Of a stretch of DNA of 29,596 bases, positions 15,303 to 29,596 are shown one piece after another. Location: NCBI GenBank assembly GCA_964486475.1, contig CAZALZ010000013.1:1-29596 (forward strand). The letters run 5' to 3'. Within the stretch, counting starts at the first letter, position 1; each line of letters starts with the position of its first letter. The DNA comes from an uncultured Gammaproteobacteria bacterium (lineage in GTDB: Bacteria > Patescibacteriota > Patescibacteriia > Patescibacteriales > WJLG01). The notes under the pieces were generated by a model. The model saw only the letters and a program-made list of their open reading frames with translations, was not told the DNA's origin and did not search any database. A program made the position numbers and the translations under genes.

Positions 15303-15329
15303 TTAGCACTCTTGACAATAGAGTGCTAA
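15303..15329 (+). promoter_or_regulatory. CIRCE operator (HrcA binding site), perfect match to consensus
   Basis: TTAGCACTC-TTGACAATA-GAGTGCTAA equals the consensus TTAGCACTC-N9-GAGTGCTAA. It ends 18 nt before the hrcA ATG. Confidence 0.92.
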
Positions 15330-15347
15330 TTGAGATATTATGGTGTT

Positions 15348-16055
15348 ATGGATAGAAAACATCAAATACTTGAAGCTATTATTAAAGAACACATCGCATC
15401 CGGCACGCCGGTCGGGTCTTCTGTTTTGGTGGAAAAATGCGGCCTGGATTGCTCACCGGCAACCGTGCGCAATATTATGGTTGAATTGGAAGAAGAAGGG
15501 TTAATCATGCAACCGCACACATCAGCCGGACGCGTGCCGACCGAAGCCGCTTATAACCTATTTATAGAAGAACTGAAAAACGGCCAGCGTAAATTGAAAA
15601 AAGCGCGCGAAAAAGAGCTGAAAGAATTGGATGATAGTTTTTCCGGAGAGGATGAAACAGCCATGCGCGAAACAGCCAAGGCTTTGGCGGCTCTGACCAA
15701 TTCCGCGGTTTTCTGGGCTTTTCATAAAAATAATTTGTATTATACCGGTTTGTCCAATCTTTTTTCCCAGCCGGAATTTATAAATTCCGGTTTGGTCTAT
15801 AATGTTTCAGCGGTGATCGATCGGATGGACGAAATTATTGATTCTATTTTTGAAAAAGTCTCGAGTTCGCCAGGGGGCGGAGCGCAAGTTTTTGTCGGCG
15901 AAGAAAATCCGTTCGGCAATTTCTGCGGTTCTGTTATTGCCAAGTATCGCCTCGGAAATCAAACCGGACTGTTCGGGATTCTCGGACCGATTAGAATGGA
16001 CTATGAGAGGAACTTGGGGCTGGTGGAATATATACTTAATAAGTTGAGGAAATAA
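15348..16055 (+). CDS. hrcA: heat-inducible transcription repressor HrcA, short form (235 aa)
   Basis: N-terminal wHTH (ILEAIIKEHIASGTPVGSSVLVEKCGLDCSPATVRNIMVELEEEGLIMQPHTSAGRVPT) and C-terminal GILGPIRMDYERNLGLVEYI. Start set at ATG 15348 (the track start at 15330 is a TTG abutting CIRCE). Confidence 0.88.
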   Translation: MDRKHQILEAIIKEHIASGTPVGSSVLVEKCGLDCSPATVRNIMVELEEEGLIMQPHTSAGRVPTEAAYNLFIEELKNGQRKLKKAREKELKELDDSFSGEDETAMRETAKALAALTNSAVFWAFHKNNLYYTGLSNLFSQPEFINSGLVYNVSAVIDRMDEIIDSIFEKVSSSPGGGAQVFVGEENPFGNFCGSVIAKYRLGNQTGLFGILGPIRMDYERNLGLVEYILNKLRK

Positions 16056-16079
16056 TTTTTATTATAATAACTGAAAAAA

Positions 16080-16150
16080 GAAAAATGAAATGTGAAAAAT
16101 GAGTAAAGATAAAATTTTTATCATTTTTCATGTTTCTTGTTTCATATTTC
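16080..16150 (+). other. long AT-rich imperfect hairpin between hrcA and grpE
   Basis: The inner arms TGAAAAATGA (16093-16102) and TCATTTTTCA (16121-16130) are perfect. The outer arms GAAAAATGAAA (16080-16090) and TTTCATATTTC (16140-16150) have one mismatch. It ends 7 nt before the grpE ATG. Confidence 0.6.
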
Positions 16151-16157
16151 AAAAGCT

Positions 16158-16628
16158 ATGTCCGAAGAAAAAAAAGTTAAAACAGAAGAAAAAACTGTTG
16201 ACGAGAAAATTCTCGAATTAGAGGCCGAACTGAAGGACGCTAACGATAAGTATATGCGCGCGTTGGCTGAACAGCAGAATCTGGTCAAACGCCAAGCGAG
16301 TGAGAAAGAAGAATTTATCAAATACGCCAACCAGGAAATCATTTTAGAATTCTTAAGCGTTTATGATCACTTGAGAATGTCAATAGATTTCTTGCCGGCC
16401 GAAGAAAAGGACAATGCTTGGGTTAAGGGAGTTGAAATGACGATCAAGCAATTTAAAGATTTATTAAATGTGAATGGCGTGGAAGAAATAAAAACCGTTG
16501 GCGAGAAATTCGACCCGAATACTATGGAAGCCACCGAAGGCACGGGGGAGAAGGTCGCGAAAGAAATTATGGCGGGGTATAAGCTGAATGGGAAAGTAAT
16601 TCGCGCCGCTCGAGTTTTGTTAGAATAA
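16158..16628 (+). CDS. grpE: nucleotide exchange factor GrpE
   Basis: Coiled-coil N-terminus (LELEAELKDANDKYMRALAEQQNLVKR), C-terminal beta domain (FDPNTMEA...GYKLNGKVIRAARV). Start at ATG 16158. Confidence 0.9.
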   Translation: MSEEKKVKTEEKTVDEKILELEAELKDANDKYMRALAEQQNLVKRQASEKEEFIKYANQEIILEFLSVYDHLRMSIDFLPAEEKDNAWVKGVEMTIKQFKDLLNVNGVEEIKTVGEKFDPNTMEATEGTGEKVAKEIMAGYKLNGKVIRAARVLLE

Positions 16629-16638
16629 ATAAATATTT

Positions 16639-16707
16639 GTAGCAGGTAGTATGTAGTATGCAGTATGGAATCTAGACCATACTACTTACTACATATTCCA
16701 TACTACC
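16639..16707. repeat. heptad-repeat hairpin element, copy E2 (grpE stop to hsp20 start)
   Basis: TAGCAGG TAGTATG TAGTATG CAGTATG G-aatctaga-C CATACTA CTTACTA CATATTC CATACTA CC. The outer arms GGTAGTATG (16645-53) and CATACTACC (16699-707) are a perfect 9 bp. The inner arms AGTATGG/CCATACT give 7 bp. Confidence 0.75.
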
Positions 16708-16715
16708 AAAATTAT

Positions 16716-17147
16716 ATGCCTAATTTAATTAAATGGAGTCCATTTTTCGACGGGTTCGAAGATATGGACAAAATGTTTTCCGAATTTGTGCCGGTTGTCA
16801 GACGCGGCGACGCTGGCGGGTTTGTTCCGGCTATCGACGTCTATGAAGACAAAGGCAATCTGATCGTGGAAACGCAATTGGCCGGAATCGATCCGGAAAA
16901 AGTTTCCATCGCCATTGAGAATGATGTTTTAACCATCAAGGGCGAGAGCGAAAAGAAAAGCGAAGTCGAGGATAAAGATTATTATAGAAAAGAAATTAGG
17001 CGCGGTTCGTTTTTCCGCACGATCCAGTTGCCGGCCCATGTTGATGGCGATAAAGCTTCGGCCATTTCCGAGTCAGGTATTTTGAAAATTTCTATCCCGA
17101 AGCGGGAAGAATCCCAACCAAAAACAATTAAAATTGAAAAAAAATAA
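16716..17147 (+). CDS. Hsp20/alpha-crystallin family small heat-shock protein
   Basis: Alpha-crystallin domain: PAIDVYEDKGNLIVETQLAGIDPEKVSIAIENDVLTIKGE...RGSFFRTIQLP...GILKISIPK. Start at ATG 16716; the track extension translates the hairpin. Confidence 0.9.
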   Translation: MPNLIKWSPFFDGFEDMDKMFSEFVPVVRRGDAGGFVPAIDVYEDKGNLIVETQLAGIDPEKVSIAIENDVLTIKGESEKKSEVEDKDYYRKEIRRGSFFRTIQLPAHVDGDKASAISESGILKISIPKREESQPKTIKIEKK

Positions 17148-17150
17148 TAT

Positions 17151-17220
17151 TAGCTGTTGGCAATATGTAGTATGTAATATGGAATTTAAACTATACACCA
17201 TACTGCATATCCCATGCTAC
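17151..17220. repeat. heptad-repeat hairpin element, copy E3 (hsp20 stop to dnaK start)
   Basis: TAGCTGTTGG CAATATG TAGTATG TAATATG G-aatttaaa-CTATACA C CATACTG CATATCC CATGCTA C. GTAGTATG (17167-74) pairs with CATACTGC (17199-206), and TAGC (17151-54) pairs with GCTA (17216-19). Confidence 0.7.
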
Positions 17221-17234
17221 AATTATAAAATTCT

Positions 17235-19154
17235 ATGAGTAAAATATTAGGAATCGACCTAGGAACAACTAACAGTGCCATGGCCATAATCGAAGGCGGA
17301 GCGCCTAAGATTCTGGAGAATGCCGAAGGAATGAGAACAACTCCTTCCATTGTCGCAATCTCTAAATCCGGCGAATGGCTGGTTGGCGCTGCGGCTAAAC
17401 GTCAGGCTGTCACCAATCCCGAGAACACCATCTTTGAGATGAAACGTTTGATCGGCCGTCACTTCAATGACGAAGAAGTTCAGCGCGATTTGAAGAATAT
17501 GCCTTACAAGATCGTGCAGGCCGGAGAAGGCGTGAAAATCATTGTTTCCGGAAAAGAATACACTCCGCAGGAAATTTCTGCCAAGGTTTTGGCGAAATTG
17601 AAAGCTGATGCTGAAGCTCGTTTGGGCGAAAAAATTACCGAAGCGATCATTACTGTTCCGGCTTATTTTGATGATTCTCAAAGACAAGCCACTAAGGATG
17701 CTGGTCAGATCGCCGGTTTGAATGTTAAGCGTATCATCAATGAGCCAACCTCAGCCGCTTTGGCTTACGGTTTGGACAAGAAGCACGGCCATCAAATCGT
17801 TGTCTACGATTTGGGCGGCGGAACTTTTGATGTTTCCATTCTTGATGTCGGCGGCGATAGCGTTATGGTTAAAGCAACTAATGGCGACACTCATTTAGGC
17901 GGCGCGGATTTTGACCAGCGCGTTATCAATTGGATTTTAGAAGAATTCCGCAAAGAGGAAGGCGTCGATCTTTCCAAAGATCCGTTGGCTTTGCAGAGAA
18001 TCAAGGAAGCGGCCGAGAAAGCCAAGATCGAATTGTCTTCTTCTATGGAGACAGAAATCAATCAGCCGTTCATAACTGTTGGTGCTGAAGGTCCGAAACA
18101 TTTAGTTAAAAAAATGACTCGCGCGAAATTGGAAGAGTTGGTCGGCGATTTGGTCGAGAAAACCATTGAGCCTTGCAAAAAGGCTTTGACCGATGCCGGT
18201 TTGAAAGTGGAGGATTTGGAAGAAGTTGTTTTGGTTGGCGGTATGACTCGTATGCCAATGGTGCAAAAATTGGTTAAAGACTTCTTTAAGAAAGAACCGA
18301 ATATGTCGGTTAATCCGGACGAAGTGGTTGCAGCTGGCGCCGCTGTTCAGGGCGGTGTCTTGCAGGGTGATGTTAAAGATATTTTGCTTTTGGATGTTAC
18401 TCCGTTGACTTTAGGTATTGAAACTTTGGGCGGCGTGGCCACTCCATTGATTGAACGCAATACCACTATCCCGACTCAAAAATCGCAAATATTTTCTACC
18501 GCAGCTGATTCTCAGACCAGCGTGGAAATCAAAGTCGTTCAAGGCGAACGCCCGATGGCGGCTGACAATAAAGTCCTGGGCAATTTTATGCTCGACGGAA
18601 TTCCGCCGGCTCCTCGCGGCGTTCCACAGGTTGAAGTTAAATTCGACATTGACGCTAACGGAATTCTGAATGTTTCCGCGATGGACAAAGCTTCCGGTAA
18701 AACTCAGAATATTACTATCACTGCTTCTTCCGGACTTTCCAAGGAAGAAGTGGAGAAGATGAAAAAAGAAGCTGAAGCGCACGCCGAGGAAGACAAGAAA
18801 AAGAAAGAAAAAATAGATTTGAAGAATCAGGCCGATGCCGCGGTTTTCCAAACCGAGAAATTGATCAAAGATATGGGCGCGAAAATGTCGCCAGAAGATG
18901 TCAAAACTTTGACCGACCATGTTGAAGATTTGAAAAAGATCAAAGACGGTGATGACATTGAAGCGATCAAAAAGAAATTGGAAGAAATGAACCAGGCTGC
19001 GCAGACCATCGGCGGGAAAATGTACCAATCCGCCCAGGGCGGACAAGCAGCCGGCGCTCAACCGGGAGCTGAACAAGCTGGCGCCGAACAACCAAAGTCC
19101 GAAGATAAAAAAGACGAAGGCCCAGTTGAAGGTGAATACGAGGAGAAAAAGTAA
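17235..19154 (+). CDS. dnaK: molecular chaperone DnaK (Hsp70)
   Basis: [29 protein letters not shown] and the other canonical Hsp70 signatures; 639 aa. Confidence 0.97.
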
Positions 19155-19165
19155 TTTTCTTATAG

Positions 19166-19197
19166 ACCAACTTTTATCTTTTGATAAAGGTTGGTTT
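19166..19197 (+). terminator. terminator after dnaK
   Basis: ACCAACTTTTATC-tttt-GATAAAGGTTGGT is a 13-bp stem with one mismatch/wobble, followed by a short TTT. Confidence 0.6.
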
Positions 19198-19212
19198 GCT
19201 AAGAAAGTTAAT

Positions 19213-19236
19213 AATTCCCCTCTCAAGAGGGGAATT
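19213..19236. repeat. palindromic repeat element copy B (intergenic, perfect 24-bp palindrome)
   Basis: AATTCCCCTCT-ca-AGAGGGGAATT, 5 nt before the ATG at 19242. Confidence 0.8.
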
Positions 19237-19241
19237 AATTT

Positions 19242-19880
19242 ATGCCTCTATCAGCCAGCCACATAAAATTCGCGCTTGATATGAAAGATTATTTCAAGCC
19301 GAAAAATTTGCAGGAATATTTTTCCGGCGCGGTTTATCCCGATAGCCGTTATTTCAGCGGGCTTGATAGAAAAAAGACTCATAATGAAAATTTTTGGCCG
19401 GAAGAATTTTGGCGCGGCGATGATTTTAAAAAGGGCTGGGCTTCGCACTGCATTTCCGATAGAGCATATACGATAGGAATGAAAAAAATTTTTCCTGCTT
19501 GGGTTGATTTGAATAATAATTTAGTAAAGATTGAAAATACCGCAGTAAAAATTCTTGGCGACATTTTTTCATTCGACGATCCGGAAATTAAAAAAATTAT
19601 TGATTTAATCGAAAATATTTCCGGCTTTAACAATGAAAGCCAAGAAGTAATGAAAGACCACTTGCAAACCATGAAATATTGCTATAAAAAGAGCGGTAAA
19701 GGGGAAATTTCCGATTATTCAAAGGCTATGCGGAAAACTTTGGGGGAGGAGATGGCTGAAAAGGTTATTTCTAAAGCGGAATTTTTTAATGAAGATAATG
19801 AGTTGTTAAAGGCGATAAAGAATTTTTTTCAAGAAGGAATTAAGATTGAGATTAAAAATATTTCGGCTAATTTAAATTAG
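19242..19880 (+). CDS. hypothetical protein (212 aa); weak resemblance to the zinc-dependent phospholipase C-like fold
   Basis: The spacing of His/Asp-containing segments (SASHIKFAL, GAVYPDSRY, KKTHNE, GWASHCISDR) resembles Zn-PLC-like families. The assignment is by eye only. Confidence 0.6.
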   Translation: MPLSASHIKFALDMKDYFKPKNLQEYFSGAVYPDSRYFSGLDRKKTHNENFWPEEFWRGDDFKKGWASHCISDRAYTIGMKKIFPAWVDLNNNLVKIENTAVKILGDIFSFDDPEIKKIIDLIENISGFNNESQEVMKDHLQTMKYCYKKSGKGEISDYSKAMRKTLGEEMAEKVISKAEFFNEDNELLKAIKNFFQEGIKIEIKNISANLN

Positions 19881-19887
19881 TATTTTT

Positions 19888-20637
19888 ATGAAAAAGCATA
19901 CTTTGCGTACAAGATTCAAAAAAGACATCGTCTGTGAATTTGTCGCGCCAAATAAAACATCTAATAAGGTGGCGATAGTTTGCGGTGGTATGCCAGGTTA
20001 TCCTGGTAGAAATAATGAATTGCTTTTTTGGCTGGCGCGTCGCGAGTATTGGGCCTTTTTGCCGAGATATCGCGGTACCTGGGAAAGCAACGGAAAATTT
20101 TTAGAAAAATCTCCGCAGCAAGACATTTTAGATATTATTAATGAGTTGCCGAAAGGTTTTAATAATTTATGGAATGGCGAAATTTTAAAAATAAAAAACC
20201 CGCAGATATATTTGTTCGGTTCCAGTTTTGGCGGACCGGCCGTTATTCTTAACTCCGGAGATCTGAGAATAAAAAAAGCAATAGTTTTTTCTCCGGTTGT
20301 TGATTGGCGCAAAGAAAGCAGGGTTGAACCGCTGGAGTGGATGGGGAAATTTGCCAAATCGGCTTTTGGCAACGGTTATCGTTTTGACAAAAAAGATTGG
20401 CGGAAGTTATCCAGTGGAAAATTTTACAATCCGGCAACGGCAACAGAAAAAATTAATCCGAAAAAAGTTTTGATTTTTCATGCCAAAGACGATAAAATTG
20501 TGGAGTTTAATCCGGTTAAAGAATTTGCCGAAAAAACGGGCTGCCGTTTCATTGCCTTAAATAAAGGCGGGCATATATCGTTTCGGAATATTATGAAGCC
20601 GGAATTTTGGAAAAAAATTAAAAAATTTATAAAATAA
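19888..20637 (+). CDS. alpha/beta-fold hydrolase (esterase/peptidase-like)
   Basis: Nucleophile elbow G-S-S-F-G-G (LFGSSFGGP), an acid candidate in HAKDDKIV, and a His in NKGGHISF, in the canonical order. Confidence 0.75.
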   Translation: MKKHTLRTRFKKDIVCEFVAPNKTSNKVAIVCGGMPGYPGRNNELLFWLARREYWAFLPRYRGTWESNGKFLEKSPQQDILDIINELPKGFNNLWNGEILKIKNPQIYLFGSSFGGPAVILNSGDLRIKKAIVFSPVVDWRKESRVEPLEWMGKFAKSAFGNGYRFDKKDWRKLSSGKFYNPATATEKINPKKVLIFHAKDDKIVEFNPVKEFAEKTGCRFIALNKGGHISFRNIMKPEFWKKIKKFIK

Positions 20638-20642
20638 AATTT

Positions 20643-21047
20643 ATGGAAAAATTAACAATGAAAACCGGTGAGGAAGTTGACAATTCGAAAATCGAAGAAA
20701 GAAAAATCGCAATTGATCCGGAAACATCAGAAATATTTAAAGAATTTCCAGTTAATAGCGATTTTGGCATAAACTGCTGGCAAGGTCCGCACTTTTTTAA
20801 TTTGGTCATTCCAAAGAATATTTTTAAAAAAATCGGGCCGGGCGATCCGCGCATAGAAGCTTTGTCAAAGACTTTCGGTGCCAAAGAAGATGCTGATGTT
20901 TACTCCGTTAAATTACCGCTTTCCGCCTCTGAGGGTAAGGTTTTAGAATCTCCGGAAGAGACAGAAGCGAGAATTCAAAAAATAATTGATGTTATAGAAA
21001 GAGCGTATAAGGATAGTTTAGCGGGTAATTTAAAAGAAATAAAATAA
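20643..21047 (+). CDS. hypothetical protein (134 aa)
   Basis: ORF 5 nt after the previous stop; no recognised motif. Confidence 0.6.
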   Translation: MEKLTMKTGEEVDNSKIEERKIAIDPETSEIFKEFPVNSDFGINCWQGPHFFNLVIPKNIFKKIGPGDPRIEALSKTFGAKEDADVYSVKLPLSASEGKVLESPEETEARIQKIIDVIERAYKDSLAGNLKEIK

Positions 21048-21082
21048 TAGTCGAAGAATGTTTTAATAAATAAAATATTAAT

Positions 21083-21370
21083 ATGGAAAACAATCAAAAC
21101 AAGCCGCCAGAAATTAAAATCGCGGATAATCTTCCAGGCGGCGAATACGCCAATGCCATGCAGGTAATTTTCAGCAAAGACGAATTTACCTTGCCGTTTT
21201 TTAATTTAGTCGGCAATACCGGCCGCGTGGTGGCGAAAATTATTTCCAATCCCGGCCATTACAACAGAATGGTTGCGGTTATGGAAAAATCTCTGAAGGA
21301 ATATGAAGGTAAATTCGGCGCGATTAAAGAGGCGGCGGAGTTGAATAAAGAGATTGGATTTAAAGCTTAA
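21083..21370 (+). CDS. DUF3467 domain protein (95 aa)
   Basis: The pattern GEYANAMQVIFSKDEFTLPFF...GRVVAKIISNPGHYNRMVAVMEKSLKEYEGKFGAIKE matches the DUF3467 signature as I recall it (Y-x-N...EF-x-LDF...P-x-HAK...YE-x-x-FG-x-I). Confidence 0.7.
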   Translation: MENNQNKPPEIKIADNLPGGEYANAMQVIFSKDEFTLPFFNLVGNTGRVVAKIISNPGHYNRMVAVMEKSLKEYEGKFGAIKEAAELNKEIGFKA

Positions 21371-21372
21371 TA

Positions 21373-21444
21373 GTAGCATGCAGCAGATAGTATGGTATAT
21401 GGTTTTTGCAACCGCCATATTACATGCCGCATATTCCATACTAC
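21373..21444. repeat. heptad-repeat hairpin element, copy E4 (DUF3467 stop to dnaJ start)
   Basis: GTAGCATG CAGCAGA TAGTATG GTATATG G-tttttgcaaccg-CCATATTA CATGCCG CATATTC CATACTA C. The outer arms GTAGCATG/CATACTAC match 7 of 8. The inner arms ATATGG/CCATAT give 6 bp. It ends 4 nt before the dnaJ ATG. Confidence 0.7.
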
Positions 21445-21448
21445 AAAA

Positions 21449-22525
21449 ATGAGTAAAGATTATTATAAAATTTTAGGAGTGGAAAGAAGTGCCGGCGCTG
21501 ATGAAGTCAAGAAGGCGTTTTTAAGGTTGGCTCATGAATATCATCCCGATAAGACCGGCGGCGACGATGCGAAATTTAAAGAAATTAATGAGGCCTACCA
21601 AGTTTTGGGAAATAAAGAAAAACGCGCGCAATATGATCAATTCGGCTCGGCGGGACCGAACATGGGAGGATTTGGCGCCGGTCGAGGATTTGGCGGTTTT
21701 CAGGGTGGAGGAATGAATATTAATATGGATGATCTGGGTGAAATGTTCGGGGGATTCGGGGATATTTTCGGTTTTGGCTCTTCTCGCTCTAGTCGCGGAA
21801 AATCAAGGCGCGGAGCAGATATCGAAGCTGAACTGACCGTTGACTTTGAAGAAGCGGTTTTCGGCGCGGAAAAGGAAGTTTCTTTGCGTAAAAAAATAAT
21901 TTGCGATCGTTGCCATGGTTCCGGCGCCGAGCCAGGAGCGAAAATGGAAAACTGCTCCACTTGCGGCGGACGCGGGAGGATTCGTTATGTCCAACAAACC
22001 ATTTTGGGTGATATTCAAACCGAAACCACTTGCCGCGCCTGCAACGGCGAAGGAAAGATTCCTTCTCAGAAATGCGCTAAATGCCACGGGAGCGGGGCAA
22101 TTAATGACAGTGTTAAATTTAAAGTTAAAATTCCGGCCGGCGTGGATGATGGCGGACGCATCCGCTTAGCCGGTTATGGCGAAGCCGGAGATAAAGATGC
22201 CGGTGCCGGTGATTTGTATTTAAATATCCGCGTGCGCCATAGTTCCAAATTTGTCCGAGAAGATTATGATATTCTTACTAAAAAAGAAATAACTTTTACT
22301 CAGGCGGCCTTGGGTGATAAAGTGGAAATTGAAACCATCCACGGTAAAGTGGAGTTGAAAATCCCGGAAGGCACTCAGTCGGGAACGGTTTTCAAATTAA
22401 AAAATAAAGGGATTCCGCATATCGGCAGTAAAATTACGGGCGATCATTTGGTGGAGATCATAATTAAAACGCCTAAAAATTTAACTGGTAAGCAGAAAAA
22501 AACTTTAAAAGAATTAAACATTTAA
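21449..22525 (+). CDS. dnaJ: molecular chaperone DnaJ (type I)
   Basis: J domain (DYYKILGV...YHPDK), G/F-rich region, four CxxCxGxG zinc-finger repeats (CDRCHGSG, CSTCGGRG, CRACNGEG, CAKCHGSG). Start at ATG 21449. Confidence 0.95.
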   Translation: MSKDYYKILGVERSAGADEVKKAFLRLAHEYHPDKTGGDDAKFKEINEAYQVLGNKEKRAQYDQFGSAGPNMGGFGAGRGFGGFQGGGMNINMDDLGEMFGGFGDIFGFGSSRSSRGKSRRGADIEAELTVDFEEAVFGAEKEVSLRKKIICDRCHGSGAEPGAKMENCSTCGGRGRIRYVQQTILGDIQTETTCRACNGEGKIPSQKCAKCHGSGAINDSVKFKVKIPAGVDDGGRIRLAGYGEAGDKDAGAGDLYLNIRVRHSSKFVREDYDILTKKEITFTQAALGDKVEIETIHGKVELKIPEGTQSGTVFKLKNKGIPHIGSKITGDHLVEIIIKTPKNLTGKQKKTLKELNI

Positions 22526-22584
22526 TTTTAAATTTTATTTTAACGTAGGAACAGAGAGGGTATTTCCGATTTAGCAGTAAAAAT

Positions 22585-24090
22585 ATGAGTAATAAAGTTT
22601 TATTGATAATTTGCGACGGTTTGGGATATAGCGAAAATATTAAATATAATGCCGTAATGGAGGCCAACACTCCGAATTTGGATGAGTTTTATAAAAAATA
22701 TCCATATGCCCTTTTAGCGGCTTCCGGAGAGGCAATTGGCTTGCCGGAAGGCCAGATGGGGACATCTGAAGCTAATCATTTGGTAATTGGTTCCGGCAGG
22801 GTCGTTTATCAAAATTTAGTTAAAATTAATCGCGCCGTGAAATCTGGAGAATTAAAAAGCAACCCGGCCATAATTGAAGCTTTTAATCATGTTAAAAAAT
22901 ATAATAGCGTTTTGCATATCAAAGGGATTCTCGGTCCGGGCGGAGTTCATGGTCACAGCGATCATATTAAGGGCTTAATAAAGGCCGCTAAAGATTTCGG
23001 AGTAAAAAATATTTTATTGCATCTCTTTACCGACGGCCGTGATACCGCTCCGCGAAGCGCCTTGGAATATATCGCCGATCTGGAAGGATTTTTCGCAGAG
23101 GAGGGTATTGGGAAAATCGCTTCTTTGGGGGGGCGCTATTATGGTATGGATAGAGATAACAACGCGGACCGCACGGAGAAACATTTTAAAATAATGACAG
23201 CGAAGGACGGACCGAAATATCCGAGCGCCAAAAAAGCGATAGAAGAGGCTTATAAAAATAATTTAACTGATGAGTTTATTGAGCCGGCTTTGATAGAAAT
23301 CGGACCCGGTGAATATGGCTGCGTTCAGTCTAATGACGCTGTTATTTTCGCCAACTTCCGCTCCGACCGCGCCAAACAACTGGCTAAGCGTTTTGTTAAC
23401 GGCGGGTTTAAAAATTTACAATATGTCGCGATGACCAAATATGACGACGACCTTGATATTCGCACGGCTTTTCCGCCGGAAGAAATAAGAAATACTTTAA
23501 GCGAGGTTGTTTCTCAAAACGGTTTAAAGCAATTAAAAATCACTGAAACGGAAAAATTTACTCATCTGACTTTTTTCTTTAATGCGCAAAAATATGAAGC
23601 CGAAAGCGGCGAGGAGAGAATTTTGATTGATAGCAATAAAGACGTGAAGACTCATGATGAAAAACCGGAGATGAAAGTTTTTGAAATCGCAGAGGAATTA
23701 GAGAAGGCTTTAGCCGAGAATAAATATGATTTTATCGCCGCCAATTTGGTAAATTGCGATATGGTCGGGCATACGGGGAATTCTTCCGCTATAATCAAGG
23801 CGGTTGAAGCGGTGGATGAAGTTTTGGGAAAAATTTTTAAAGCCGCCCGTTCCGCCGGGTATGAAGTTATTATTACCGCTGATCATGGTAATGCCGAGCA
23901 GATTTTTGATGAGTTTTCCGGCCAAGTCATGACCTCGCATACTTTAAATCCCGTGCCGTTTATTCTTCTTTCTGAAAAATATGAAAAATTAAACAAACCA
24001 GAGGGATTGCTTTCCGATGTGGCGCCGACAATTTTGAAAATAATGGGTTTGCCGGTACCGACTGAGATGACTGGGCGTCCTTTAATTTGA
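22585..24090 (+). CDS. gpmI: 2,3-bisphosphoglycerate-independent phosphoglycerate mutase
   Basis: LIICDGLGYS N-terminus, catalytic-Ser region TSEANHLVIGSGR, GGVHGH, TDGRDT, C-terminal ADHGNAE; 501 aa. Confidence 0.9.
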   Translation: MSNKVLLIICDGLGYSENIKYNAVMEANTPNLDEFYKKYPYALLAASGEAIGLPEGQMGTSEANHLVIGSGRVVYQNLVKINRAVKSGELKSNPAIIEAFNHVKKYNSVLHIKGILGPGGVHGHSDHIKGLIKAAKDFGVKNILLHLFTDGRDTAPRSALEYIADLEGFFAEEGIGKIASLGGRYYGMDRDNNADRTEKHFKIMTAKDGPKYPSAKKAIEEAYKNNLTDEFIEPALIEIGPGEYGCVQSNDAVIFANFRSDRAKQLAKRFVNGGFKNLQYVAMTKYDDDLDIRTAFPPEEIRNTLSEVVSQNGLKQLKITETEKFTHLTFFFNAQKYEAESGEERILIDSNKDVKTHDEKPEMKVFEIAEELEKALAENKYDFIAANLVNCDMVGHTGNSSAIIKAVEAVDEVLGKIFKAARSAGYEVIITADHGNAEQIFDEFSGQVMTSHTLNPVPFILLSEKYEKLNKPEGLLSDVAPTILKIMGLPVPTEMTGRPLI

Positions 24091-24095
24091 ATTTA

Positions 24096-24132
24096 AAAAA
24101 ATCGGCGAGTCGAAAGGCTTGCCGATTTTTTT
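24096..24132 (+). terminator. rho-independent terminator after gpmI
   Basis: AAAAATCGGC-gagtcgaaaggctt-GCCGATTTTTTT. Confidence 0.75.
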
Positions 24133-24190
24133 ATAATTATTCGTTTAAGCGGCTATTTTAAAAATCTATCTTTTCTGTTATTCTTAACAT

Positions 24191-25282
24191 ATGAAAAAAT
24201 TAATAATATTGTTTTTATTTTTTATTCCTTTTTTAACTGTTAAGGCTCAAGATTCTGGTAGTATCGAGAATTTTGAAGCGCAAGTTGTGGAAGTGATAGA
24301 ACAGAAAAAATTTACCGATCAGAACGGAGAAGAAAATATCCGGCAGAATTTGCTTTTGCGCGGTCTGAGCGGTTCTTGGCGCGGAGAAGAGATAAGGTAT
24401 GACGGAATTGGTGCGGCCGACACCGTTAGCGCCCAGCTTTATGAAGTGGGCGATAAAGTTTTGGTGCAGAAAACAACCACGCCGGAAGGCGAGAGCAATT
24501 TTTACATCACCGATTATGTCCGCCGCGGCTGGCTTTATCTTTTGACTGTTATTTTTTGTTTGATTGTTTTGGCGGTCGGCGGCTGGAAGGGCGGCCGGTC
24601 CTTATTGAGTTTAGTTTTAAGCTTTTTTGTAATAATAAAATTCGTAATTCCCCTTATTGTTTCCGGATACAGTCCGCTTTTGGTTTCACTTTTCGGTTCC
24701 TTTATTATTTTGGGTTTGTTGATATATGTAACCGAAGGTTTTAGTATTAAATCGCATTTGGCAATGGTTTCCATGTTTTTTTCTTTAGCCGCTACTTTGG
24801 GTTTGTCAGTTTTGTTTTCCGGCTTGGCTCGTTTAACCGGATTAGCTAGTGAAGAAGCTGGTTTTTTAATCGGTTTAACCGATTCGCCGATAAATTTCCG
24901 CGGTTTGCTTTTGGCCGGTTTTTTAATCGGTGCCGTCGGGGTTTTGGATGATGTGGTCGTTGGTCAGATTGAGGCGGTGCGCCAAATAAAAGAAGCCAAT
25001 CCTTATATGTCTTTTTGGAAACTTTTTCGTTCAGCTTATAAAGTCGGCAACACCCATTTAAGCGCCATAGTCAATACTTTGTTTTTGGTTTATGCCGGCG
25101 CGTCATTGCCGTTATTAATTCTTTTTTCTTTAGGAGAGAATTCATCCATTACTTTCTCGGGAGCTCTTAATAATGAATTAATAGCCACGGAAATCGTTCG
25201 TACCTTAGTCGGCTCAATCGGCGTAGCTTTATCTATCCCGATTTCCACTTTACTGGCGGCAAAATGGCTGAAGATTAAATGA
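24191..25282 (+). CDS. YibE/F-like multi-pass membrane protein
   Basis: Signal peptide and an extracytoplasmic N-domain, then about 7 TM helices. Motifs GAVGVLDDVVVGQIEAV, YKVGNTHLSAIVNTLFLVYAGASLPLL resemble YibE/F. Confidence 0.6.
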   Translation: MKKLIILFLFFIPFLTVKAQDSGSIENFEAQVVEVIEQKKFTDQNGEENIRQNLLLRGLSGSWRGEEIRYDGIGAADTVSAQLYEVGDKVLVQKTTTPEGESNFYITDYVRRGWLYLLTVIFCLIVLAVGGWKGGRSLLSLVLSFFVIIKFVIPLIVSGYSPLLVSLFGSFIILGLLIYVTEGFSIKSHLAMVSMFFSLAATLGLSVLFSGLARLTGLASEEAGFLIGLTDSPINFRGLLLAGFLIGAVGVLDDVVVGQIEAVRQIKEANPYMSFWKLFRSAYKVGNTHLSAIVNTLFLVYAGASLPLLILFSLGENSSITFSGALNNELIATEIVRTLVGSIGVALSIPISTLLAAKWLKIK

Positions 25283-25310
25283 TTTTTCAATAATTCGGCG
25301 CGATATTTTA

Positions 25311-25339
25311 TTCAAGCTCTTGCAAGAAAAATTTATAAT
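25311..25339 (+). promoter_or_regulatory. candidate promoter (TTCAAG-17 nt-TATAAT)
   Basis: A perfect -10 TATAAT at 25334-25339, about 90 nt before the ATG at 25431. Confidence 0.4.
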
Positions 25340-25430
25340 CGGCGTATTATCAGGCAGAAGAGCTCTCTTAATAAATTAATATTTCGCCGAAATGTTAAAG
25401 GGTTTCTTTGATATTTCGAAAAGAATATTC

Positions 25431-25925
25431 ATGAAAAATAAAAAAATTATCATTGCCGGTTTGGCTTTGCTGGCTTTAGGAGTCGTTTCTTGCCCATTCT
25501 ATGCCAATGCTTCTACTGATTCTTCTGCTGGTTCGAATCGAAAAATGAGGGGCGGTGAAAAGCCTGACAATCGCCCAGAAATGGCTTCAACGACTTCTGT
25601 TGAATTTGAACAGAAAAAAGCCGAGCAGGAGGCCAAGCAAGAGGCGCTAAACGAAGCTTTGTCCAGCGGCGATTATAATGCTTGGACAGAAGCTGTTGGT
25701 AGTGATGGTAAAATGTTTGATAAAATAACCGCTGATAATTTTTCCAATCTTTCTGAAGCTTATAAGCTAATGAAAGAGGCTGAAAGTTTGCTGGAAGATG
25801 CCGGACTGGATGGCGGAATGGGGATTTTAAACGGTTTTGGTTTAGACGGTCGACATGGGGGATTTCATGATTTTAAAAAATTGGAGGCGGGGCAAAATAG
25901 CGCGGAGCAACAAATAAATAATTAA
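25431..25925 (+). CDS. secreted hypothetical protein (164 aa)
   Basis: Signal peptide MKNKKIIIAGLALLALGVVSCPFYANA, then a low-complexity/helical region. Start moved to ATG 25431. Confidence 0.65.
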   Translation: MKNKKIIIAGLALLALGVVSCPFYANASTDSSAGSNRKMRGGEKPDNRPEMASTTSVEFEQKKAEQEAKQEALNEALSSGDYNAWTEAVGSDGKMFDKITADNFSNLSEAYKLMKEAESLLEDAGLDGGMGILNGFGLDGRHGGFHDFKKLEAGQNSAEQQINN

Positions 25926-25941
25926 TTTAAATTTTCCGTTT

Positions 25942-25970
25942 AAGCTTGTTTCTTTTGAAACAAGCTTTTA
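25942..25970 (+). terminator. rho-independent terminator
   Basis: AAGCTTGTTTC-tttt-GAAACAAGCTT is a perfect 11-bp stem followed by TTT. Confidence 0.75.
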
Positions 25971-25984
25971 CAGCTACGGAGAAT

Positions 25985-26419
25985 ATGCTTACTGATAAAA
26001 AGAATGTTATAATAACCGCCGTTGTTTTGGTTTTAATAGTGACGGCTGCCGGGTCTTTTTTTGCAGGAGTGTCTTTCGGTAAGGGTAAGAATACCCGCGG
26101 AAATTTTTCTAATGACGGTAATTTTCAGGGTAAAATCAACCAAGGTTCCGACGCCGGCATGATCAGCGGCGAAGTGATCGGCATAGCCGGAGATAATATT
26201 ATTATCAGCCAGGGCGATGGTACAGAAAGAAAAATCAATATTTCCGAGGCCGTTGTTACTATTACTGAAATTATTAACAAATCCATAGATGATTTAGCTG
26301 TCGGTCAATCCGTAATAGTTAATGGTTCTACTGATTCTGATGATAATTTTTCCGCCACGATCGTGCAGATTCGTTCTAAAGAAGATATGCCCGCGCCGGC
26401 GCAAAACAGACAACCGTAA
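25985..26419 (+). CDS. membrane-anchored hypothetical protein (144 aa), possibly with a small beta domain
   Basis: N-terminal TM helix VIITAVVLVLIVTAAGSFFAGV, then G-x-V-x-x-I...V-x-x-G-x-x-V-x-V-x-G type beta-strand repeats. The SD-like GGAGA lies 3 nt upstream, closer than usual. The track start is a TTG inside the upstream terminator. Confidence 0.6.
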   Translation: MLTDKKNVIITAVVLVLIVTAAGSFFAGVSFGKGKNTRGNFSNDGNFQGKINQGSDAGMISGEVIGIAGDNIIISQGDGTERKINISEAVVTITEIINKSIDDLAVGQSVIVNGSTDSDDNFSATIVQIRSKEDMPAPAQNRQP

Positions 26420-26452
26420 GATGGCGCTCCGGCCGCCAGATAATAAGAATTT

Positions 26453-26477
26453 AAAAAAACAACCTCAGTTGTTTTTT
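26453..26477. terminator. bidirectional terminator between convergent genes
   Basis: AAAAAACAAC-ctca-GTTGTTTTTT, perfect and symmetrical. Confidence 0.75.
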
Positions 26478-26494
26478 AAAATAAGCGGTTTTGT

Positions 26495-27223
26495 TTATTT
26501 TTTTGAAAAGAATCTTTCGCTATAATATTTTCTTTCTTCTGGGTTTCCGCCATCCGCGGCGCTTTTTTTGGTTAGTTGGCCGGGGTGGACGCGGTAGAGG
26601 CAAAGATAACCTTCAATTAAATATGGTTTGAATTTTTTTTCCGCCAGCCTCAACCAAAGATCGTAATCTTGTGTACGCAATTTTTCACCCCAGCCGCCGA
26701 CTGTTTTTATGCAAGAACGGTCGATTGTTGCAGTGCCGTTGGGAACGAAACAGCGTTTTAAAAGGCTTTGAAAGGCATTTTTAGCTTGAGGGCGATAAAT
26801 ATTGTATTCTCCCAAATTTTCCAATAATTTGTTATTTTTATTGATAAATAAAGAGCGTCCGTAAGTCCATTGGGCGCGCGGATTTTTCTTGAGAAAATTA
26901 TATCTGATTTGCAGGCTGGAGCGCGGCAGTAGATCGTCGTCGTCCAGCGGAACAATGAATTTTCCTTTGGATTTTTTGAAAGCGATATTTAAGGCGTCGC
27001 CCGGGCCGAAGTTGCGGTTGTTTTTTATGTAAATAATTCTTTTGTCTTCGCGCACGAATTTTTTAGCGATTTTGGCAGTGTCGTCGGTTGAGTTATTATC
27101 TACGATGATGTGTTCGTGGGTAAAGCCTTCTTCTTTCTGGTTTTGGATGCTTCTGATATTAGCCGTCAGGAATTCCGCGCGGTTATGGGTTGGGGTGAGA
27201 ATAGAGAAAAAAGGCTTTTTCAT
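26495..27223 (-). CDS. family 2 glycosyltransferase
   Basis: FSILTPTHNRAEFL, IIVDNNSTDDT, the DxD region VPLDDDDLL; typical GT-A GT2 layout. Confidence 0.85.
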   Translation of the reverse strand: MKKPFFSILTPTHNRAEFLTANIRSIQNQKEEGFTHEHIIVDNNSTDDTAKIAKKFVREDKRIIYIKNNRNFGPGDALNIAFKKSKGKFIVPLDDDDLLPRSSLQIRYNFLKKNPRAQWTYGRSLFINKNNKLLENLGEYNIYRPQAKNAFQSLLKRCFVPNGTATIDRSCIKTVGGWGEKLRTQDYDLWLRLAEKKFKPYLIEGYLCLYRVHPGQLTKKSAADGGNPEERKYYSERFFSKK

Positions 27224-27225
27224 AA

Positions 27226-28596
27226 TTATTTTATTTTTCCCACAAAGTATTTTACCAATTCATCGGCGCCGACGCGTTCTTGAGCCATGGTGTCGCGGTC
27301 GCGGATTGTGACGGTATTGTCTTTTTCAATGGTATCAAAATCAACGGTTACGCAATAAGGCGTGCCGATTTCGTCCTGGCGGCGGTAGCGTTTGCCGACA
27401 TTGCCGTTGTCGTCAAATTCGCAAGTCCAATTTTTCTTTAAAGTGTTGAAAATTTCCTGCGCTTTTTCGACGAGAGCGGGTTTATTCTTTAATAATGGAA
27501 AGACGGCAATTTTTATCGGGGCGACTGTCGGCGGGAATTTAAGGACGACGCGTTCGTCATCTTCTATTTTTTCTTCGGTATAAGCCGAGCAGAGAACGGC
27601 CAGAAGCGCGCGGTCGAGGCCCATGGAAGGCTCAATAACGTGCGGGAGATATTTTTTGGCGTTGTCATTCGGGTCGCTGTAGCGCAGATCGGCGCCGGAA
27701 AATTTGGCATGCTGCGAAAGATCAAAATCGCCGCGATGCGCCAAACCGCAAAGTTCGCTTTGGCCGAATGGATATTCAAATTCCAGATCAACGGTTTTGC
27801 GGGAATAATGGGAAAGTTTTTCTTTCGGATGTTCAAAACGGACGACTTTTTTCATGTCAACGCCGACGGCGGAAAAAAATTCTTCCTGATTTTTCAGCCA
27901 GCTTTCAAACAGCGGCTGCCAATCAGCTTCCGGATCAAAAAAATATTCTATTTCCATTTGCTCAAATTCGCGCGTGCGGAAAATAAAATTGCGGGCGATT
28001 ATTTCGTTGCGGAAAGCTTTTCCGATTTGGGCGATGCCGAAAGGAATTTTGACGCGAGTGGAATCCAGGACATTTTTGAAATCAGAAAATATCGCGCCGG
28101 CGGTTTCTGGCCTTAGATATATCGGTTCGTTGATGCCGTTCATTTCGGTTTTAAACATCATATTCAGAGTGCGGACTTCGGTCCAATCGGATTTGCCGCA
28201 TTCCGGGCATTTTTGCCCTTGCAACGCTTGATTCATTCCTTCCAGATTTCCTTCCAAGTCTTTACCGGTTAATTCTTCAACCAAATGGTCGGCGCGGAAA
28301 CGTTTCTGGCAGGCTTTGCAGTCAACCATCGCATCGTTAAAACCGGTGGTGTGGCCGGAAGCTTCCCAGAGTTTCGGATGCAAAAGGATCGGACCGTCGA
28401 GGCCGACAATGTCTTCGCGTTCTTCTACGAATTTTTTCCACCAAATATCTTTGATGTTTTTTTTGAGTTGAACGCCGTAAGGGCCGTAAGAATAGGCATT
28501 AGCCAAACCGCCGTAAATTTCACAAGCTGGGAAAATAAAGCCTCTTCTTTTACAAAGAGAAACTATCTTTTCCATTTGTTCGTTTTGTTCGGTCAT
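27226..28596 (-). CDS. glyQS: glycine--tRNA ligase (alpha2 homodimeric type)
   Basis: IVSLCKRRGFIFPACEIYGGLANAYSYGPYG, FRADHL, class II motifs (FRNEI, GLDR), C-terminal anticodon-binding domain; 456 aa. Confidence 0.93.
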   Translation of the reverse strand: MTEQNEQMEKIVSLCKRRGFIFPACEIYGGLANAYSYGPYGVQLKKNIKDIWWKKFVEEREDIVGLDGPILLHPKLWEASGHTTGFNDAMVDCKACQKRFRADHLVEELTGKDLEGNLEGMNQALQGQKCPECGKSDWTEVRTLNMMFKTEMNGINEPIYLRPETAGAIFSDFKNVLDSTRVKIPFGIAQIGKAFRNEIIARNFIFRTREFEQMEIEYFFDPEADWQPLFESWLKNQEEFFSAVGVDMKKVVRFEHPKEKLSHYSRKTVDLEFEYPFGQSELCGLAHRGDFDLSQHAKFSGADLRYSDPNDNAKKYLPHVIEPSMGLDRALLAVLCSAYTEEKIEDDERVVLKFPPTVAPIKIAVFPLLKNKPALVEKAQEIFNTLKKNWTCEFDDNGNVGKRYRRQDEIGTPYCVTVDFDTIEKDNTVTIRDRDTMAQERVGADELVKYFVGKIK

Positions 28597-28650
28597 ATGA
28601 GTATAAAACTAAATTTTAAAATTTAAAATTGTGATTTGAGATTTTCAAGT

Positions 28651-29596
28651 CTACATTTCTTCAACCACTTCAATCCCCAACAACCCTAATCCATTTTTTA
28701 TAGTTTCTGAAACAGAATTAAGCAGGGTCAGGCGGGCATTTTTGGTTTCTTCGTCAGCTTGCAAAACCGGAACGGCGTGGTAGTAATCGTTTAACATCTG
28801 TGCCAACTCGTAAATATATTTAGCGATTTCTGATGGGTCGTAATTCTTGCCGGCGGTTTCTATAATTTCTGGATATAAAGCAAGTTTTTTAATTAATTCT
28901 ATTTCTTTATTGTTGTTCAGTTTTTCTGCAAAGTTTAACACATCCCGCCTCGGAGTACAGAACCACCCCTCTCGAGAGGGGAATTCTTTATGAAAAATTG
29001 ATTGTATTCTGGCGTAGGCGTATTGGATGTAGGTAGAGGTGAAACCTTCCAGAGCGAGCGCTTTTTCAATATCAAAAGTGATAATGCTTTTAGCGCCGAC
29101 TTTAAGCATTTCGAATTTCATCGCGCCAACGGCGATTTTTTTGGAATTTTCCAGGATTTTTTCTTCGCTCCAATCTTCATGGCGTTTTTTTGTTTCCGCA
29201 ACGCATTTAGACAGAATATCTTGTTTTAATTCTTTGTAAGTGATGACATTGCCGGTGCGGGAGGACATCATACCGGTTGGAAGTTTAACAAAATCGTAGC
29301 CGAGGTGGACAAAATTTTCTTTGAAGCCGGAGAGTTCAAGAATTTTGAACAGTTGTTTGAAATAAAATTCTTGGCGGATATCAACAATAACAATGGAAGT
29401 ATCAGGGGAAAACCGGCGGTGTTTTTCTTTCGCCAAAGCTAAGTCGGCGACAGCATAAGCGGCGGTGCCGTTAGAGCGCGCAACAACCAAGACGTCCAAG
29501 CCGTATTCTTTTAAGTCGGCGATGATAGCGCCTTCGCTTTTTTTCAGAATGCCTTTTTCCAAAAGGGCCGCTGTGTCTATAACAGAGCCTTTTTCA
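28651..29596 (-). CDS. argS: arginine--tRNA ligase, C-terminal about 315 codons (5' end off window)
   Basis: The frame stays open to the window edge (the track start at 29562 is an internal TTG). MSSRTGNV (KMSKS-equivalent region), YIQYAYARIQSI, C-terminal DALR anticodon-binding domain ending ...GIEVVEEM. Confidence 0.9.
   Translation of the reverse strand, partial: EKGSVIDTAALLEKGILKKSEGAIIADLKEYGLDVLVVARSNGTAAYAVADLALAKEKHRRFSPDTSIVIVDIRQEFYFKQLFKILELSGFKENFVHLGYDFVKLPTGMMSSRTGNVITYKELKQDILSKCVAETKKRHEDWSEEKILENSKKIAVGAMKFEMLKVGAKSIITFDIEKALALEGFTSTYIQYAYARIQSIFHKEFPSREGWFCTPRRDVLNFAEKLNNNKEIELIKKLALYPEIIETAGKNYDPSEIAKYIYELAQMLNDYYHAVPVLQADEETKNARLTLLNSVSETIKNGLGLLGIEVVEEM
28941..28985 (+). 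repeat. palindromic repeat element copy C, inside argS (antisense to the gene)
   Basis: CATCCCGCCTCGGAGTACAGAACCA-CCCCTCT-cg-AGAGGGGAATT. It encodes EFPSREGWFCTPRRD in ArgRS on the minus strand. Confidence 0.65.

Follow-up and report, generated by a model that had tools for sequence, protein, structure and literature searches.

A heptad-repeat hairpin, designated E4, occupies the whole spacer between a DUF3467 gene and dnaJ in contig CAZALZ010000013.1 of assembly GCA_964486475.1, the 29,596-nt stretch analyzed here and called the window; the best relatives of its DnaJ protein are all in Patescibacteria/Parcubacteria metagenome-assembled genomes (MAGs). The gene order is CIRCE (controlling inverted repeat of chaperone expression), hrcA, grpE (ATG at 16158), hsp20 (ATG at 16716), dnaK (17235-19154), two hairpins, four open reading frames (ORFs), dnaJ, and iPGM. 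As a preliminary description had noted, dnaJ is displaced ~2.3 kb downstream of the end of dnaK at 19154, with the four ORFs between, and E4 ends 4 nt 5' of its ATG at 21449, separated from it by AAAA. The four ORFs encode an unknown protein, an alpha/beta-hydrolase, a second unknown protein, and a DUF3467 protein. They had been described as unrelated to the chaperone genes, which is not correct for all of them: DUF3467-dnaJ is a conserved pair in many Patescibacteria, with DUF3467 directly 5' of dnaJ at 20 loci in the sample described below, and the pairing hints at a possible functional link between the small protein and DnaJ. Because the DUF3467 stop codon is at 21368-21370, 2 nt 5' of E4, the hairpin fills the 78-nt spacer:

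21083-21370, + strand: DUF3467 gene, the conserved partner upstream of dnaJ
21373-21444, + strand: E4, the heptad-repeat hairpin, occupying the whole DUF3467|dnaJ spacer
21373-21402, + strand: 5' arm of E4, GTAGCAT GCAGCAG ATAGTAT GGTATAT GG, four heptads
21403-21414, + strand: apex or loop of E4, TTTTTGCAACCG, 12 nt, with a small GGTT/AACC mini-stem within it
21415-21444, + strand: 3' arm of E4, CC ATATTAC ATGCCGC ATATTCC ATACTAC, including an irregular ATATTCC heptad common to other copies
21445-21451, + strand: AAAA linker, then ATG at 21449, the true start of dnaJ; no Shine-Dalgarno sequence
21449-22525, + strand: dnaJ, 358 aa; calling the ORF from 21392 adds a false N-terminal extension translated from the hairpin

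E4 is an imperfect hairpin of GTAGTAT/ATACTAC heptads, with four heptads per arm. Its region is predicted to fold at -24.8 kcal/mol, against -16.6 +/- 2.7 for shuffled sequences (z = -3.1); the folding energy ranges from -22 to -25 kcal/mol, and the stem has the stability and length (at least 20 bp) that characterize intervening sequence (IVS) elements. It also consists of tandem 7-nt units just 5' of a start codon, as do TAACTGA repeats and short tandemly repeated repetitive (STRR) sequences. An Rfam scan of the window at the gathering threshold returned two tRNAs only, with no family for E4 and no rRNA, and in a permissive scan of 15900-21600 the only matches were to precursor models of miRNAs and snoRNAs, at chance level (E about 0.4-0.5). 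A scan for sigma-70-type promoters found none in or adjoining E4, and the hexamers that can be spotted by eye differ between copies. The mistranslation of the element that had been described earlier is real: an in-frame ATG at 21392, inside the 5' arm, adds the 19 residues MVYGFCNRHITCRIFHTTK before the true start MSKDYYKILGV, and a public database entry from a close relative (protein P0001, 377 aa) carries the identical false extension. An in-frame ATG in a 5' arm likewise gives a false extension of hsp20 in the window (16665-16715), and a similar case occurs at comparison locus L004 (15442-15478).

E4 is one of several such elements in the window. The motif CCATACTAC, with up to one mismatch, has 15 matches against 1.7 expected, a number reached by none of 100 shuffles, and 14 of these fall into four clusters (8425-8440, 16646-16706, 17167-17220, and 21387-21444), which precede ppsA (- strand), hsp20, dnaK, and dnaJ, respectively. 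A second type of heptad hairpin precedes grpE:

8403-8470, - strand: GTAGTAT-family copy before a phosphoenolpyruvate synthase/pyruvate phosphate dikinase-like gene (ppsA; ATG at 8402, - strand), inverted relative to the gene
16072-16151, + strand: heptad hairpin of a second type, TGAAAAA/TTTTTCA, equal in size to E4; it takes up the hrcA|grpE spacer and ends 6 nt before the grpE ATG at 16158
16633-16713, + strand: GTAGTAT-family copy filling the grpE|hsp20 spacer (hsp20 ATG at 16716)
17147-17226, + strand: GTAGTAT-family copy filling the hsp20|dnaK spacer (dnaK ATG at 17235)

All four non-hrcA chaperone genes in the window (grpE, hsp20, dnaK, and dnaJ) are therefore preceded by a heptad hairpin, 2-14 nt before the ATG. 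Heptad hairpins stand before 4 of 4 of these chaperone genes vs. 1-2 of ~23 other spacers; the remaining spacers hold ordinary GC-rich terminators, a different foldback element, or nothing. A Shine-Dalgarno sequence is missing from most genes of the window.

Turnover of heptad stems among related loci

Eighty metagenomic dnaJ loci were gathered for comparison (numbered with the prefix L), plus further loci found by exact-protein look-up of homologues; exact-protein look-up of the DnaJ and DnaK of the window itself gave no match, and homologues led to the relatives instead. About 12 of 76 loci have a heptad hairpin or array directly 5' of dnaJ, and many different heptads are represented, as at these loci:

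L004: GTAGTAT, the same family as in the window
L005: ATGCTAA/TTAGCAT
L007: AAGTTAT
L008: TATCACA/TATGAGT
L020: TAATACA
L022: ACGAAAC
L002: TTATCAT
L073: AATTCTT
L049: CGTAAAT
L060: GGACGTC

The period itself is specific. Scanned with one window length and one threshold, the Patescibacteria loci contain 29 regions of period 7 and at most six at any other period from 5 to 13; period 14 gave eight regions, and shuffled sequences gave none or one.

The presence of an element at dnaJ is not stable. A dnaJ gene without a heptad element is found in L001 and L085/L086 (79% DnaJ identity), which have a GC-rich hairpin instead, and in L093 (75% DnaJ identity), where the spacer is 18 nt; L091 (77% DnaJ identity) has a decayed array at dnaJ. 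Other genes carry heptad elements in L085, L038, and L079. This is the combination, dnaJ without the element in relatives and other genes with it, that the preliminary description had named as refuting a function tied to dnaJ.

Locus L081 (NCBI GCA_030154545.1), whose DnaJ is 97% identical and whose gene order is the same as in the window, shows turnover over a shorter distance. Its dnaJ hairpin is identical to E4 at 74 of 78 positions, with three of the four substitutions keeping or adding sense-strand base pairs. Its hsp20 hairpin has exactly one heptad fewer in the 5' arm and is otherwise identical at 77 of 80 positions, despite a third-codon identity of only 0.62-0.66 in the flanking grpE and hsp20 genes, which points to homogenization or recent copying. 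Elsewhere the two differ in kind: the hrcA|grpE spacer has a GTAGTAT-type hairpin in L081 vs. the TGAAAAA type in the window; the dnaK spacer has ATGCTAA/TTAGCAT arms, the type seen at dnaJ in L005, vs. the GTAGTAT type in the window; and the spacer between an aminoacyl-tRNA synthetase gene and argS has a GTAGTAT-type hairpin in L081 and none in the window. Within the L081 population, identity among four contigs is 99.96-100%, too high to be informative on copy-number variation.

The background divergence of the two genomes is itself uneven. Nucleotide identity to L081 is about 83% over 15340-19203 of the window (hrcA to dnaK; third-codon identity 0.58-0.66) and 91-96% over 19868-29565, a jump that suggests recombination or replacement of the hrcA-dnaK block; L081 has no counterpart of the 212-aa ORF at 19242-19880.

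Certain irregularities, among them an ATATYCC heptad in the 3' arm and CATATTCCATACTAC, recur in copies at separate sites and in separate genomes, which marks these as copies of one element rather than independent products of slippage. Within short evolutionary times, heptad elements are thus copied, exchanged, and lengthened or shortened in whole heptads. The identity of E4 as one member of a dispersed, rapidly exchanged group of foldbacks with heptad arms is well supported.

Cassettes with an IVP gene

In seven independent cases, inverted heptad arrays bracket a gene of family PF05635 (23S_rRNA_IVP, also S23p or "four helix bundle," bAvd-like), always co-oriented with the host operon:

L004, 15040-15476, 437 nt: ABC_transp_aux / IVP / next gene; arm duplex -37.1 vs. 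-14.3 +/- 3.3 kcal/mol for shuffles
L095, 3985-4387: same site as L004; arm duplex -28.8 vs. -11.7 +/- 3.0 kcal/mol for shuffles
L099, 3936-4401: same site as L004, with GAACAT-type arms
L091, 2811-3250: grpE / IVP / hsp20, with ATGATAA arms; -37.8 vs. -18.1 +/- 4.1 kcal/mol for shuffles
L002: IVP, then a TTATCAT array, then dnaJ
L073, 9532-9992: AAGAATT array, IVP, AATTCTT array, then dnaJ
L055, 12650-13135: IVP before dus

An eighth (L097, gatC / IVP / gatA) has weak arms only. Overall, the predicted energies of duplexes between the flanking arms are as low as -29 to -38 kcal/mol, compared with -12 to -18 for shuffled sequences; for L004, shuffles with changed flank lengths gave -12.4 +/- 3.3 kcal/mol. 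The L004 arms that flank the IVP gene (A2, on the left, and A3) align with both arms of E4, A2 with the 5' arm, and every heptad family occurs both as a solo hairpin and as arms enclosing an ORF. The full-length, IVP-bearing relatives of E4 measure 370-440 nt. For comparison, the Coxiella IVS is a selfish element of 428-444 nt that carries an S23p ORF, has ends that pair in a 28-bp stem with a single mismatch and a single bulge, and is excised by RNase III; short IVSs without an ORF are known in other bacteria, and IVS distribution is sporadic (PMC4990558).

Three further observations concern these cassettes. The IVP genes carry strong Shine-Dalgarno sequences (AAGGAGGG), while the host genes are mostly without. 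Hundreds of Patescibacteria IVP homologues are on contigs of only 0.5-2 kb, as expected of repeats that break metagenome assemblies. In L081 (2650-2995), ATGCTAA/TTAGCAT arms ~290 nt apart enclose a 70-aa ORF with a hydrophobic C-terminus and no Pfam match, possibly an alternative cargo of a heptad-arm cassette.

Placement, transcription, and competing explanations

Counted over ~1 Mb of Patescibacteria dnaJ loci with our own rough ORF calls, period-7 arrays at most 100 nt 5' of the start precede 10 of 54 DnaK, 5 of 29 Hsp20, and 9 of 76 DnaJ genes, along with 2 of 44 GrpE, 0 of 42 HrcA, and 26 of 737 other genes. When only spacers of at least 60 nt are counted, the comparison is 17/81 for dnaK, dnaJ, and hsp20 vs. 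16/364 for other genes (odds ratio 5.8, Fisher p = 6e-6). The proposed link between the element and chaperone genes stands in one respect, since placement is non-random and enriched about five-fold there, and fails in another, since it is not specific to them: the GTAGTAT family also stands before ppsA, pheT, ruvC, and an aminoacyl-tRNA synthetase gene. The pheT copy is between pheS and pheT in Patescibacteria MAG STD1_31 (L088), which has another before an unknown gene; the ruvC copy, in a Candidatus Taylorbacteria MAG (L087), separates ruvC from yebC and is inverted; and the copy before the synthetase gene is in L081. Other heptad stems precede murJ, lepA, glyA, scpA, scpB, a ybaK-like gene, yidC (twice), dus, a miaB-like gene, atpE, a DUF2127 gene, and others, and these non-chaperone genes have no common functional theme. 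The 30 kb of this genome contain four GTAGTAT copies; heptad elements number five over 17.6 kb of L081 and two over 8 kb of L088. A scan of 185,579 species genomes, one genome per species, with a strict GTAGTAT-family pattern returned two true matches, plus two chance matches in Bacteroidota coding DNA; with so strict a pattern and so few matches, the range of the family is under-sampled.

The further claim, that the element follows the gene and not its position in an operon, agrees with L004, where the hairpin is 11 nt before dnaJ in a divergent spacer. Arrays are also depleted in convergent spacers (1/44 vs. 13.8% expected, p = 0.012), and together these point to an association with gene starts or transcribed spacers, not with 3' ends. 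Two more features of the window bear on transcription:

15303-15329, + strand: perfect CIRCE operator before hrcA, a canonical heat-shock operator distinct from the heptad hairpins
19155-19237, + strand: two strong terminator-like hairpins after dnaK

The terminator-like hairpins would place dnaJ in a separate downstream transcription unit. Within this, the E4 spacer is almost certainly transcribed together with dnaJ, judging from the arrangement of the genes: those upstream are joined by 5-35 nt spacers, and there is no terminator before dnaJ and one after iPGM.

Occurring before unrelated genes, exchanged for other families at orthologous spacers, and absent at dnaJ in some relatives, the element behaves as a dispersed REP-like (repetitive extragenic palindromic), MITE-like (miniature inverted-repeat transposable element), or IVS-like repeat found preferentially at chaperone genes; E4 is neither a chaperone-specific regulatory site nor a chance REP. 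Its GTAGTAT/ATACTAC family belongs to a wider class of heptad stems that colonizes transcribed gene spacers in Patescibacteria. We favor the reading that E4 is an ORF-less IVS-like or MITE-like foldback, co-transcribed with dnaJ and probably processed as double-stranded RNA, and assign identity and mechanism jointly a probability of about 0.5. E4 would be transcribed within a DUF3467-dnaJ(-iPGM) message and fold into a regularly mismatched stem of ~30 bp that stops 4 nt short of an AUG lacking a Shine-Dalgarno sequence. By analogy to IVS stems, this could be cleaved by an RNase III-type enzyme or bound as double-stranded RNA. Either cleavage or a stable stem might separate or insulate the dnaJ cistron, setting its 5' end and its accessibility to ribosomes, and the outcome would be a short, unstructured dnaJ leader with no Shine-Dalgarno sequence. 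A lesion removed or made harmless at the RNA level could explain why such elements are tolerated 2-14 nt before essential start codons. The roughly five-fold excess at chaperone genes suggests preferential insertion or retention, for example in highly transcribed operons, or co-option.

Several points weigh against this reading. A purely selfish element does not explain the chaperone excess. The enrichment statistics depend on the rough ORF calls and come from phylogenetically related loci, although the heptad families mostly differ between them, and copy counts for this genome cover 30 kb only. Conservation of E4 is no higher than that of neighboring spacers. The G:U asymmetry that would follow from selection at the RNA level is weak (39 vs. 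27 G:U pairs, sense vs. antisense), and of 18 elements only 10 fold better as the sense strand. Applied to 11 GTAGTAT-family copies, RNAalifold chose a shifted register and found no usable covariation, because heptads allow several pairing registers. A tblastn search placed no RNase III in this genome or the fetched loci, an uninformative result; no mobility enzyme was identified among the genes scanned in the window or beside the elements; and no target-site duplication was identified, the alignment of empty and filled sites at the aminoacyl-tRNA synthetase|argS spacer being too poor.

Of the alternatives, the first is that E4 is a chaperone-linked cis-regulatory RNA, whether an RNA thermometer or a stress-dependent translational gate, giving dnaJ the control of hsp20, dnaK, and grpE outside the CIRCE operon. 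All four non-hrcA chaperone genes of the window stand 2-14 nt behind such a hairpin; the enrichment before dnaK, dnaJ, and hsp20 is five- to six-fold, with none before hrcA, which has CIRCE; dnaJ follows a terminator and lacks its own CIRCE; in genes without a Shine-Dalgarno sequence a stem in the ribosome footprint could gate initiation; and heptad families differ at the same chaperone spacers, as if any stem would suffice. On the other hand, the AUG is outside the main stem, which is predicted to remain folded from 10 to 55°C while only weak pairings near the AUG melt; the GTAGTAT family also precedes ppsA, pheT, ruvC, and the synthetase gene, and other stems precede yidC, murJ, lepA, glyA, scpA/B, dus, and atpE; and the element is missing at dnaJ in several close relatives. 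On balance we think this explanation is not likely. A classic RNA thermometer in particular is not supported by temperature-dependent folding: the predicted core paired fraction of the GTAGTAT copies is 0.60-0.68 over 10-55°C, with the AUG not paired to the stem. For the grpE hairpin it is predicted to fall from 0.79 to 0.63 over the same range.

A small probability attaches to E4 as a REP/REPIN-like single-stranded DNA element, the substrate of an HUH (RAYT-type) or other transposase, spreading at the DNA level with no role as RNA and found at dnaJ through spacer tolerance. The elements are REP-sized imperfect palindromes, several per 30 kb, alike within a genome and different between genomes; they occur in both orientations to the downstream gene (the ppsA and ruvC copies are inverted); E. 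coli REPs begin with GTAG, as do the heptad arms here; the [arm][gene][arm] layout recalls REPtrons; and many IVP homologues are on very short contigs, as repeats are. Against it, none of the fetched loci showed a Y1/HUH transposase, and the bracketed gene encodes an IVP four-helix-bundle protein and not a nuclease; convergent spacers, typical REP sites, are depleted of elements; all IVP cassettes are co-oriented with the host operon; and the enrichment at chaperone genes is left unexplained.

E4 might instead be a stem for translational coupling or insulation, or the site of a repeat-binding protein. A ribosome terminating on DUF3467 could melt the base of the stem and free the dnaJ start; the stem could keep the AU-rich start region unpaired; or the heptads could be binding sites for S1 or Csp-like proteins, a role proposed for TAACTGA repeats. 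Arrays do begin within ~10 nt of the preceding stop codon and extend to a few nt short of the following ATG, and the genes of the window mostly lack Shine-Dalgarno sequences, but compaction alone would give equally tight spacing. Precedents exist in the Beggiatoaceae, where TAACTGA repeats are within a few nt of start codons lacking ribosome-binding sites (PMC4679880), and in Nostoc, where such repeats of heptamers close to start codons influenced the output of a reporter (bioRxiv 10.1101/2022.06.06.494920). Against coupling, the L004 hairpin is in a divergent spacer with no upstream cistron, and against a protein site, the heptad sequences are too diverse for one binding protein; this group of explanations is improbable.

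Quite improbable is a neutral by-product, in which replication slippage, favoring heptamers, and template-switch inversion build palindromes in situ in AT-rich spacers that are neither mobile nor functional. According to Mrazek (2007, as cited in PMC4679880), no long simple-sequence repeat is commoner in prokaryotes than the heptanucleotide kind, for which polymerase slippage was proposed as the cause; the hsp20 copies of the window and L081 differ by a whole-heptad indel; and many arrays are direct only, with no inverted partner. Slippage would not, however, give copies the same irregular details (ATATYCC and CATATTCCATACTAC), which speak for shared descent, or exchange whole families at orthologous sites; the hairpin is also far better conserved than flanking synonymous sites, and its placement is non-random. 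Last, a DNA operator for a second heat-shock repressor beside HrcA/CIRCE, with heptad half-sites like CtsR boxes, would suit an inverted repeat of repeated heptads ahead of four chaperone genes, and CtsR operators are heptad repeats, but it is close to refuted by the different family at grpE in the same genome, the other families at grpE and dnaK in the genome with 97% identical DnaJ, the unrelated heptads at dnaJ in relatives, the GTAGTAT copies before pheT, ruvC, and ppsA, and the location of most copies between co-transcribed genes, with no room for a promoter. Swaps of family between orthologous spacers rule out any sequence-specific operator, as the heptad families differ both within a genome and between near-identical genomes.

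To return to the foldback reading, a broader version of it would make heptad stems Patescibacteria-wide "operon intervening sequences": mobile cassettes, with or without an Avd-like IVP gene, inside polycistronic mRNAs, neutralized or exploited by double-stranded RNA processing. With slippage-prone arms and swappable families, they could act as fast-evolving tuning modules for the following cistron, retained before dnaK, dnaJ, and hsp20 as a post-transcriptional layer beside HrcA/CIRCE, and the IVP protein might recognize or propagate the stems. As a whole this is speculative, and not likely. The Patescibacteria have tiny genomes and few known regulators, and almost nothing is known of their gene regulation; as a common structured element only a few bases ahead of start codons and enriched five-fold at chaperone genes, the heptad stem is a candidate agent of post-transcriptional control. 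For annotation, the stems are a source of false N-terminal extensions (dnaJ here, P0001, hsp20 of the window, and the gene after the L004 IVP), and they probably also break assemblies.

Some observations on the rest of the window may be added. In the CIRCE region (15303-15341), TTGACA is inside the CIRCE spacer and TATTAT is 18 nt downstream; as this -10 hexamer is inside the hrcA ORF as called from TTG at 15330, the real hrcA start is probably further downstream. Another foldback family, with TTGTCATTC...GGATGACAA ends, is present at 4856-~5000; its palindromes flank hsp20 in L085 (3585-3790 and 4240-4400) and are 5' of dnaJ in the distant loci L010, L026, L035, L044, and L065. It is another dispersed palindrome family, in spacers of the kind that heptad stems occupy. 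Two small adjacent ORFs at ~11226-11450 and 11452-11724 (within 11062-12222) resemble a toxin-antitoxin pair by eye only, and a neighboring 165-aa ORF matches a type IV secretion system pilin (PF18895).

Comparison with known systems

In full-text literature searches, neither stems with heptad arms nor IVP cassettes were found described for operons of Patescibacteria, but four kinds of known element resemble E4 in part. Like the CIRCE/HrcA operator and RNA thermometers (ROSE, fourU), it is upstream of a heat-shock gene, and CIRCE is likewise an inverted repeat in a dnaK operon. Unlike them, E4 lacks the CIRCE consensus (TTAGCACTC-N9-GAGTGCTAA with up to three mismatches has its sole match in the window at 15303-15329), sequesters neither AUG nor Shine-Dalgarno sequence, and is predicted to stay folded to 55°C.

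By behavior, the closest systems are REP/REPIN elements and co-transcribed MITEs, though no transposase was found: the genes scanned, those of the window and those adjoining the elements, include no RAYT/Y1 HUH enzyme, and the arm-flanked genes are IVP genes. Correia/NEMIS elements of Neisseria, for example, are MITEs that are co-transcribed and cut by RNase III. The likeness is in short, imperfect extragenic palindromes, alike within a genome, in either orientation and often co-transcribed, and with REPtrons in the [arm][gene][arm] layout; the differences are the periodic heptad arms, the depletion in convergent (3'-3') spacers, and a bracketed gene for an Avd-like four-helix-bundle protein.

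By sequence organization, the closest are heptamer tandem repeats beside start codons, namely the TAACTGA repeats of Beggiatoaceae, cyanobacteria, and Bacteroidetes and the STRR-type heptamers of cyanobacteria. These are also tandem 7-nt units in 2-6 copies, a few nt before start codons without a canonical ribosome-binding site, with no functional theme among the downstream genes (PMC4679880; bioRxiv 10.1101/2022.06.06.494920). They have a fixed unit (TAACTGA or STRR1-3) in direct orientation only, whereas the units here include GTAGTAT, ATGCTAA, TGAAAAA, AAGAATT, TAATACA, and others, mostly as inverted pairs; the host phylum, the association with IVP cassettes, and the enrichment at dnaK, dnaJ, and hsp20 are further differences.

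By architecture, the closest are the IVS elements of 23S rRNA (Coxiella, Leptospira, Salmonella). They share complementary ends forming a stem of ~28-35 bp with few mismatches, a PF05635 IVP gene between the arms of E4's full-length relatives, co-oriented with the host, the existence of short versions without an ORF, and a sporadic, selfish-looking distribution (PMC4990558). E4 and related copies differ in being between protein-coding genes and not in helix 25 or 45 of 23S rRNA, and in having arms that are tandem heptad arrays, of several families. E4 itself also lacks the ORF of ORF-bearing IVSs, which elements of its class have in L004, L095, L099, L091, L073, and L055, and for E4 excision by RNase III is a putative process only. 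The tie to IVP connects three poorly understood things, the intervening sequences of rRNA, the widespread genes for "four-helix-bundle protein," and the heptamer repeats at start codons, in a way that makes them jointly testable.

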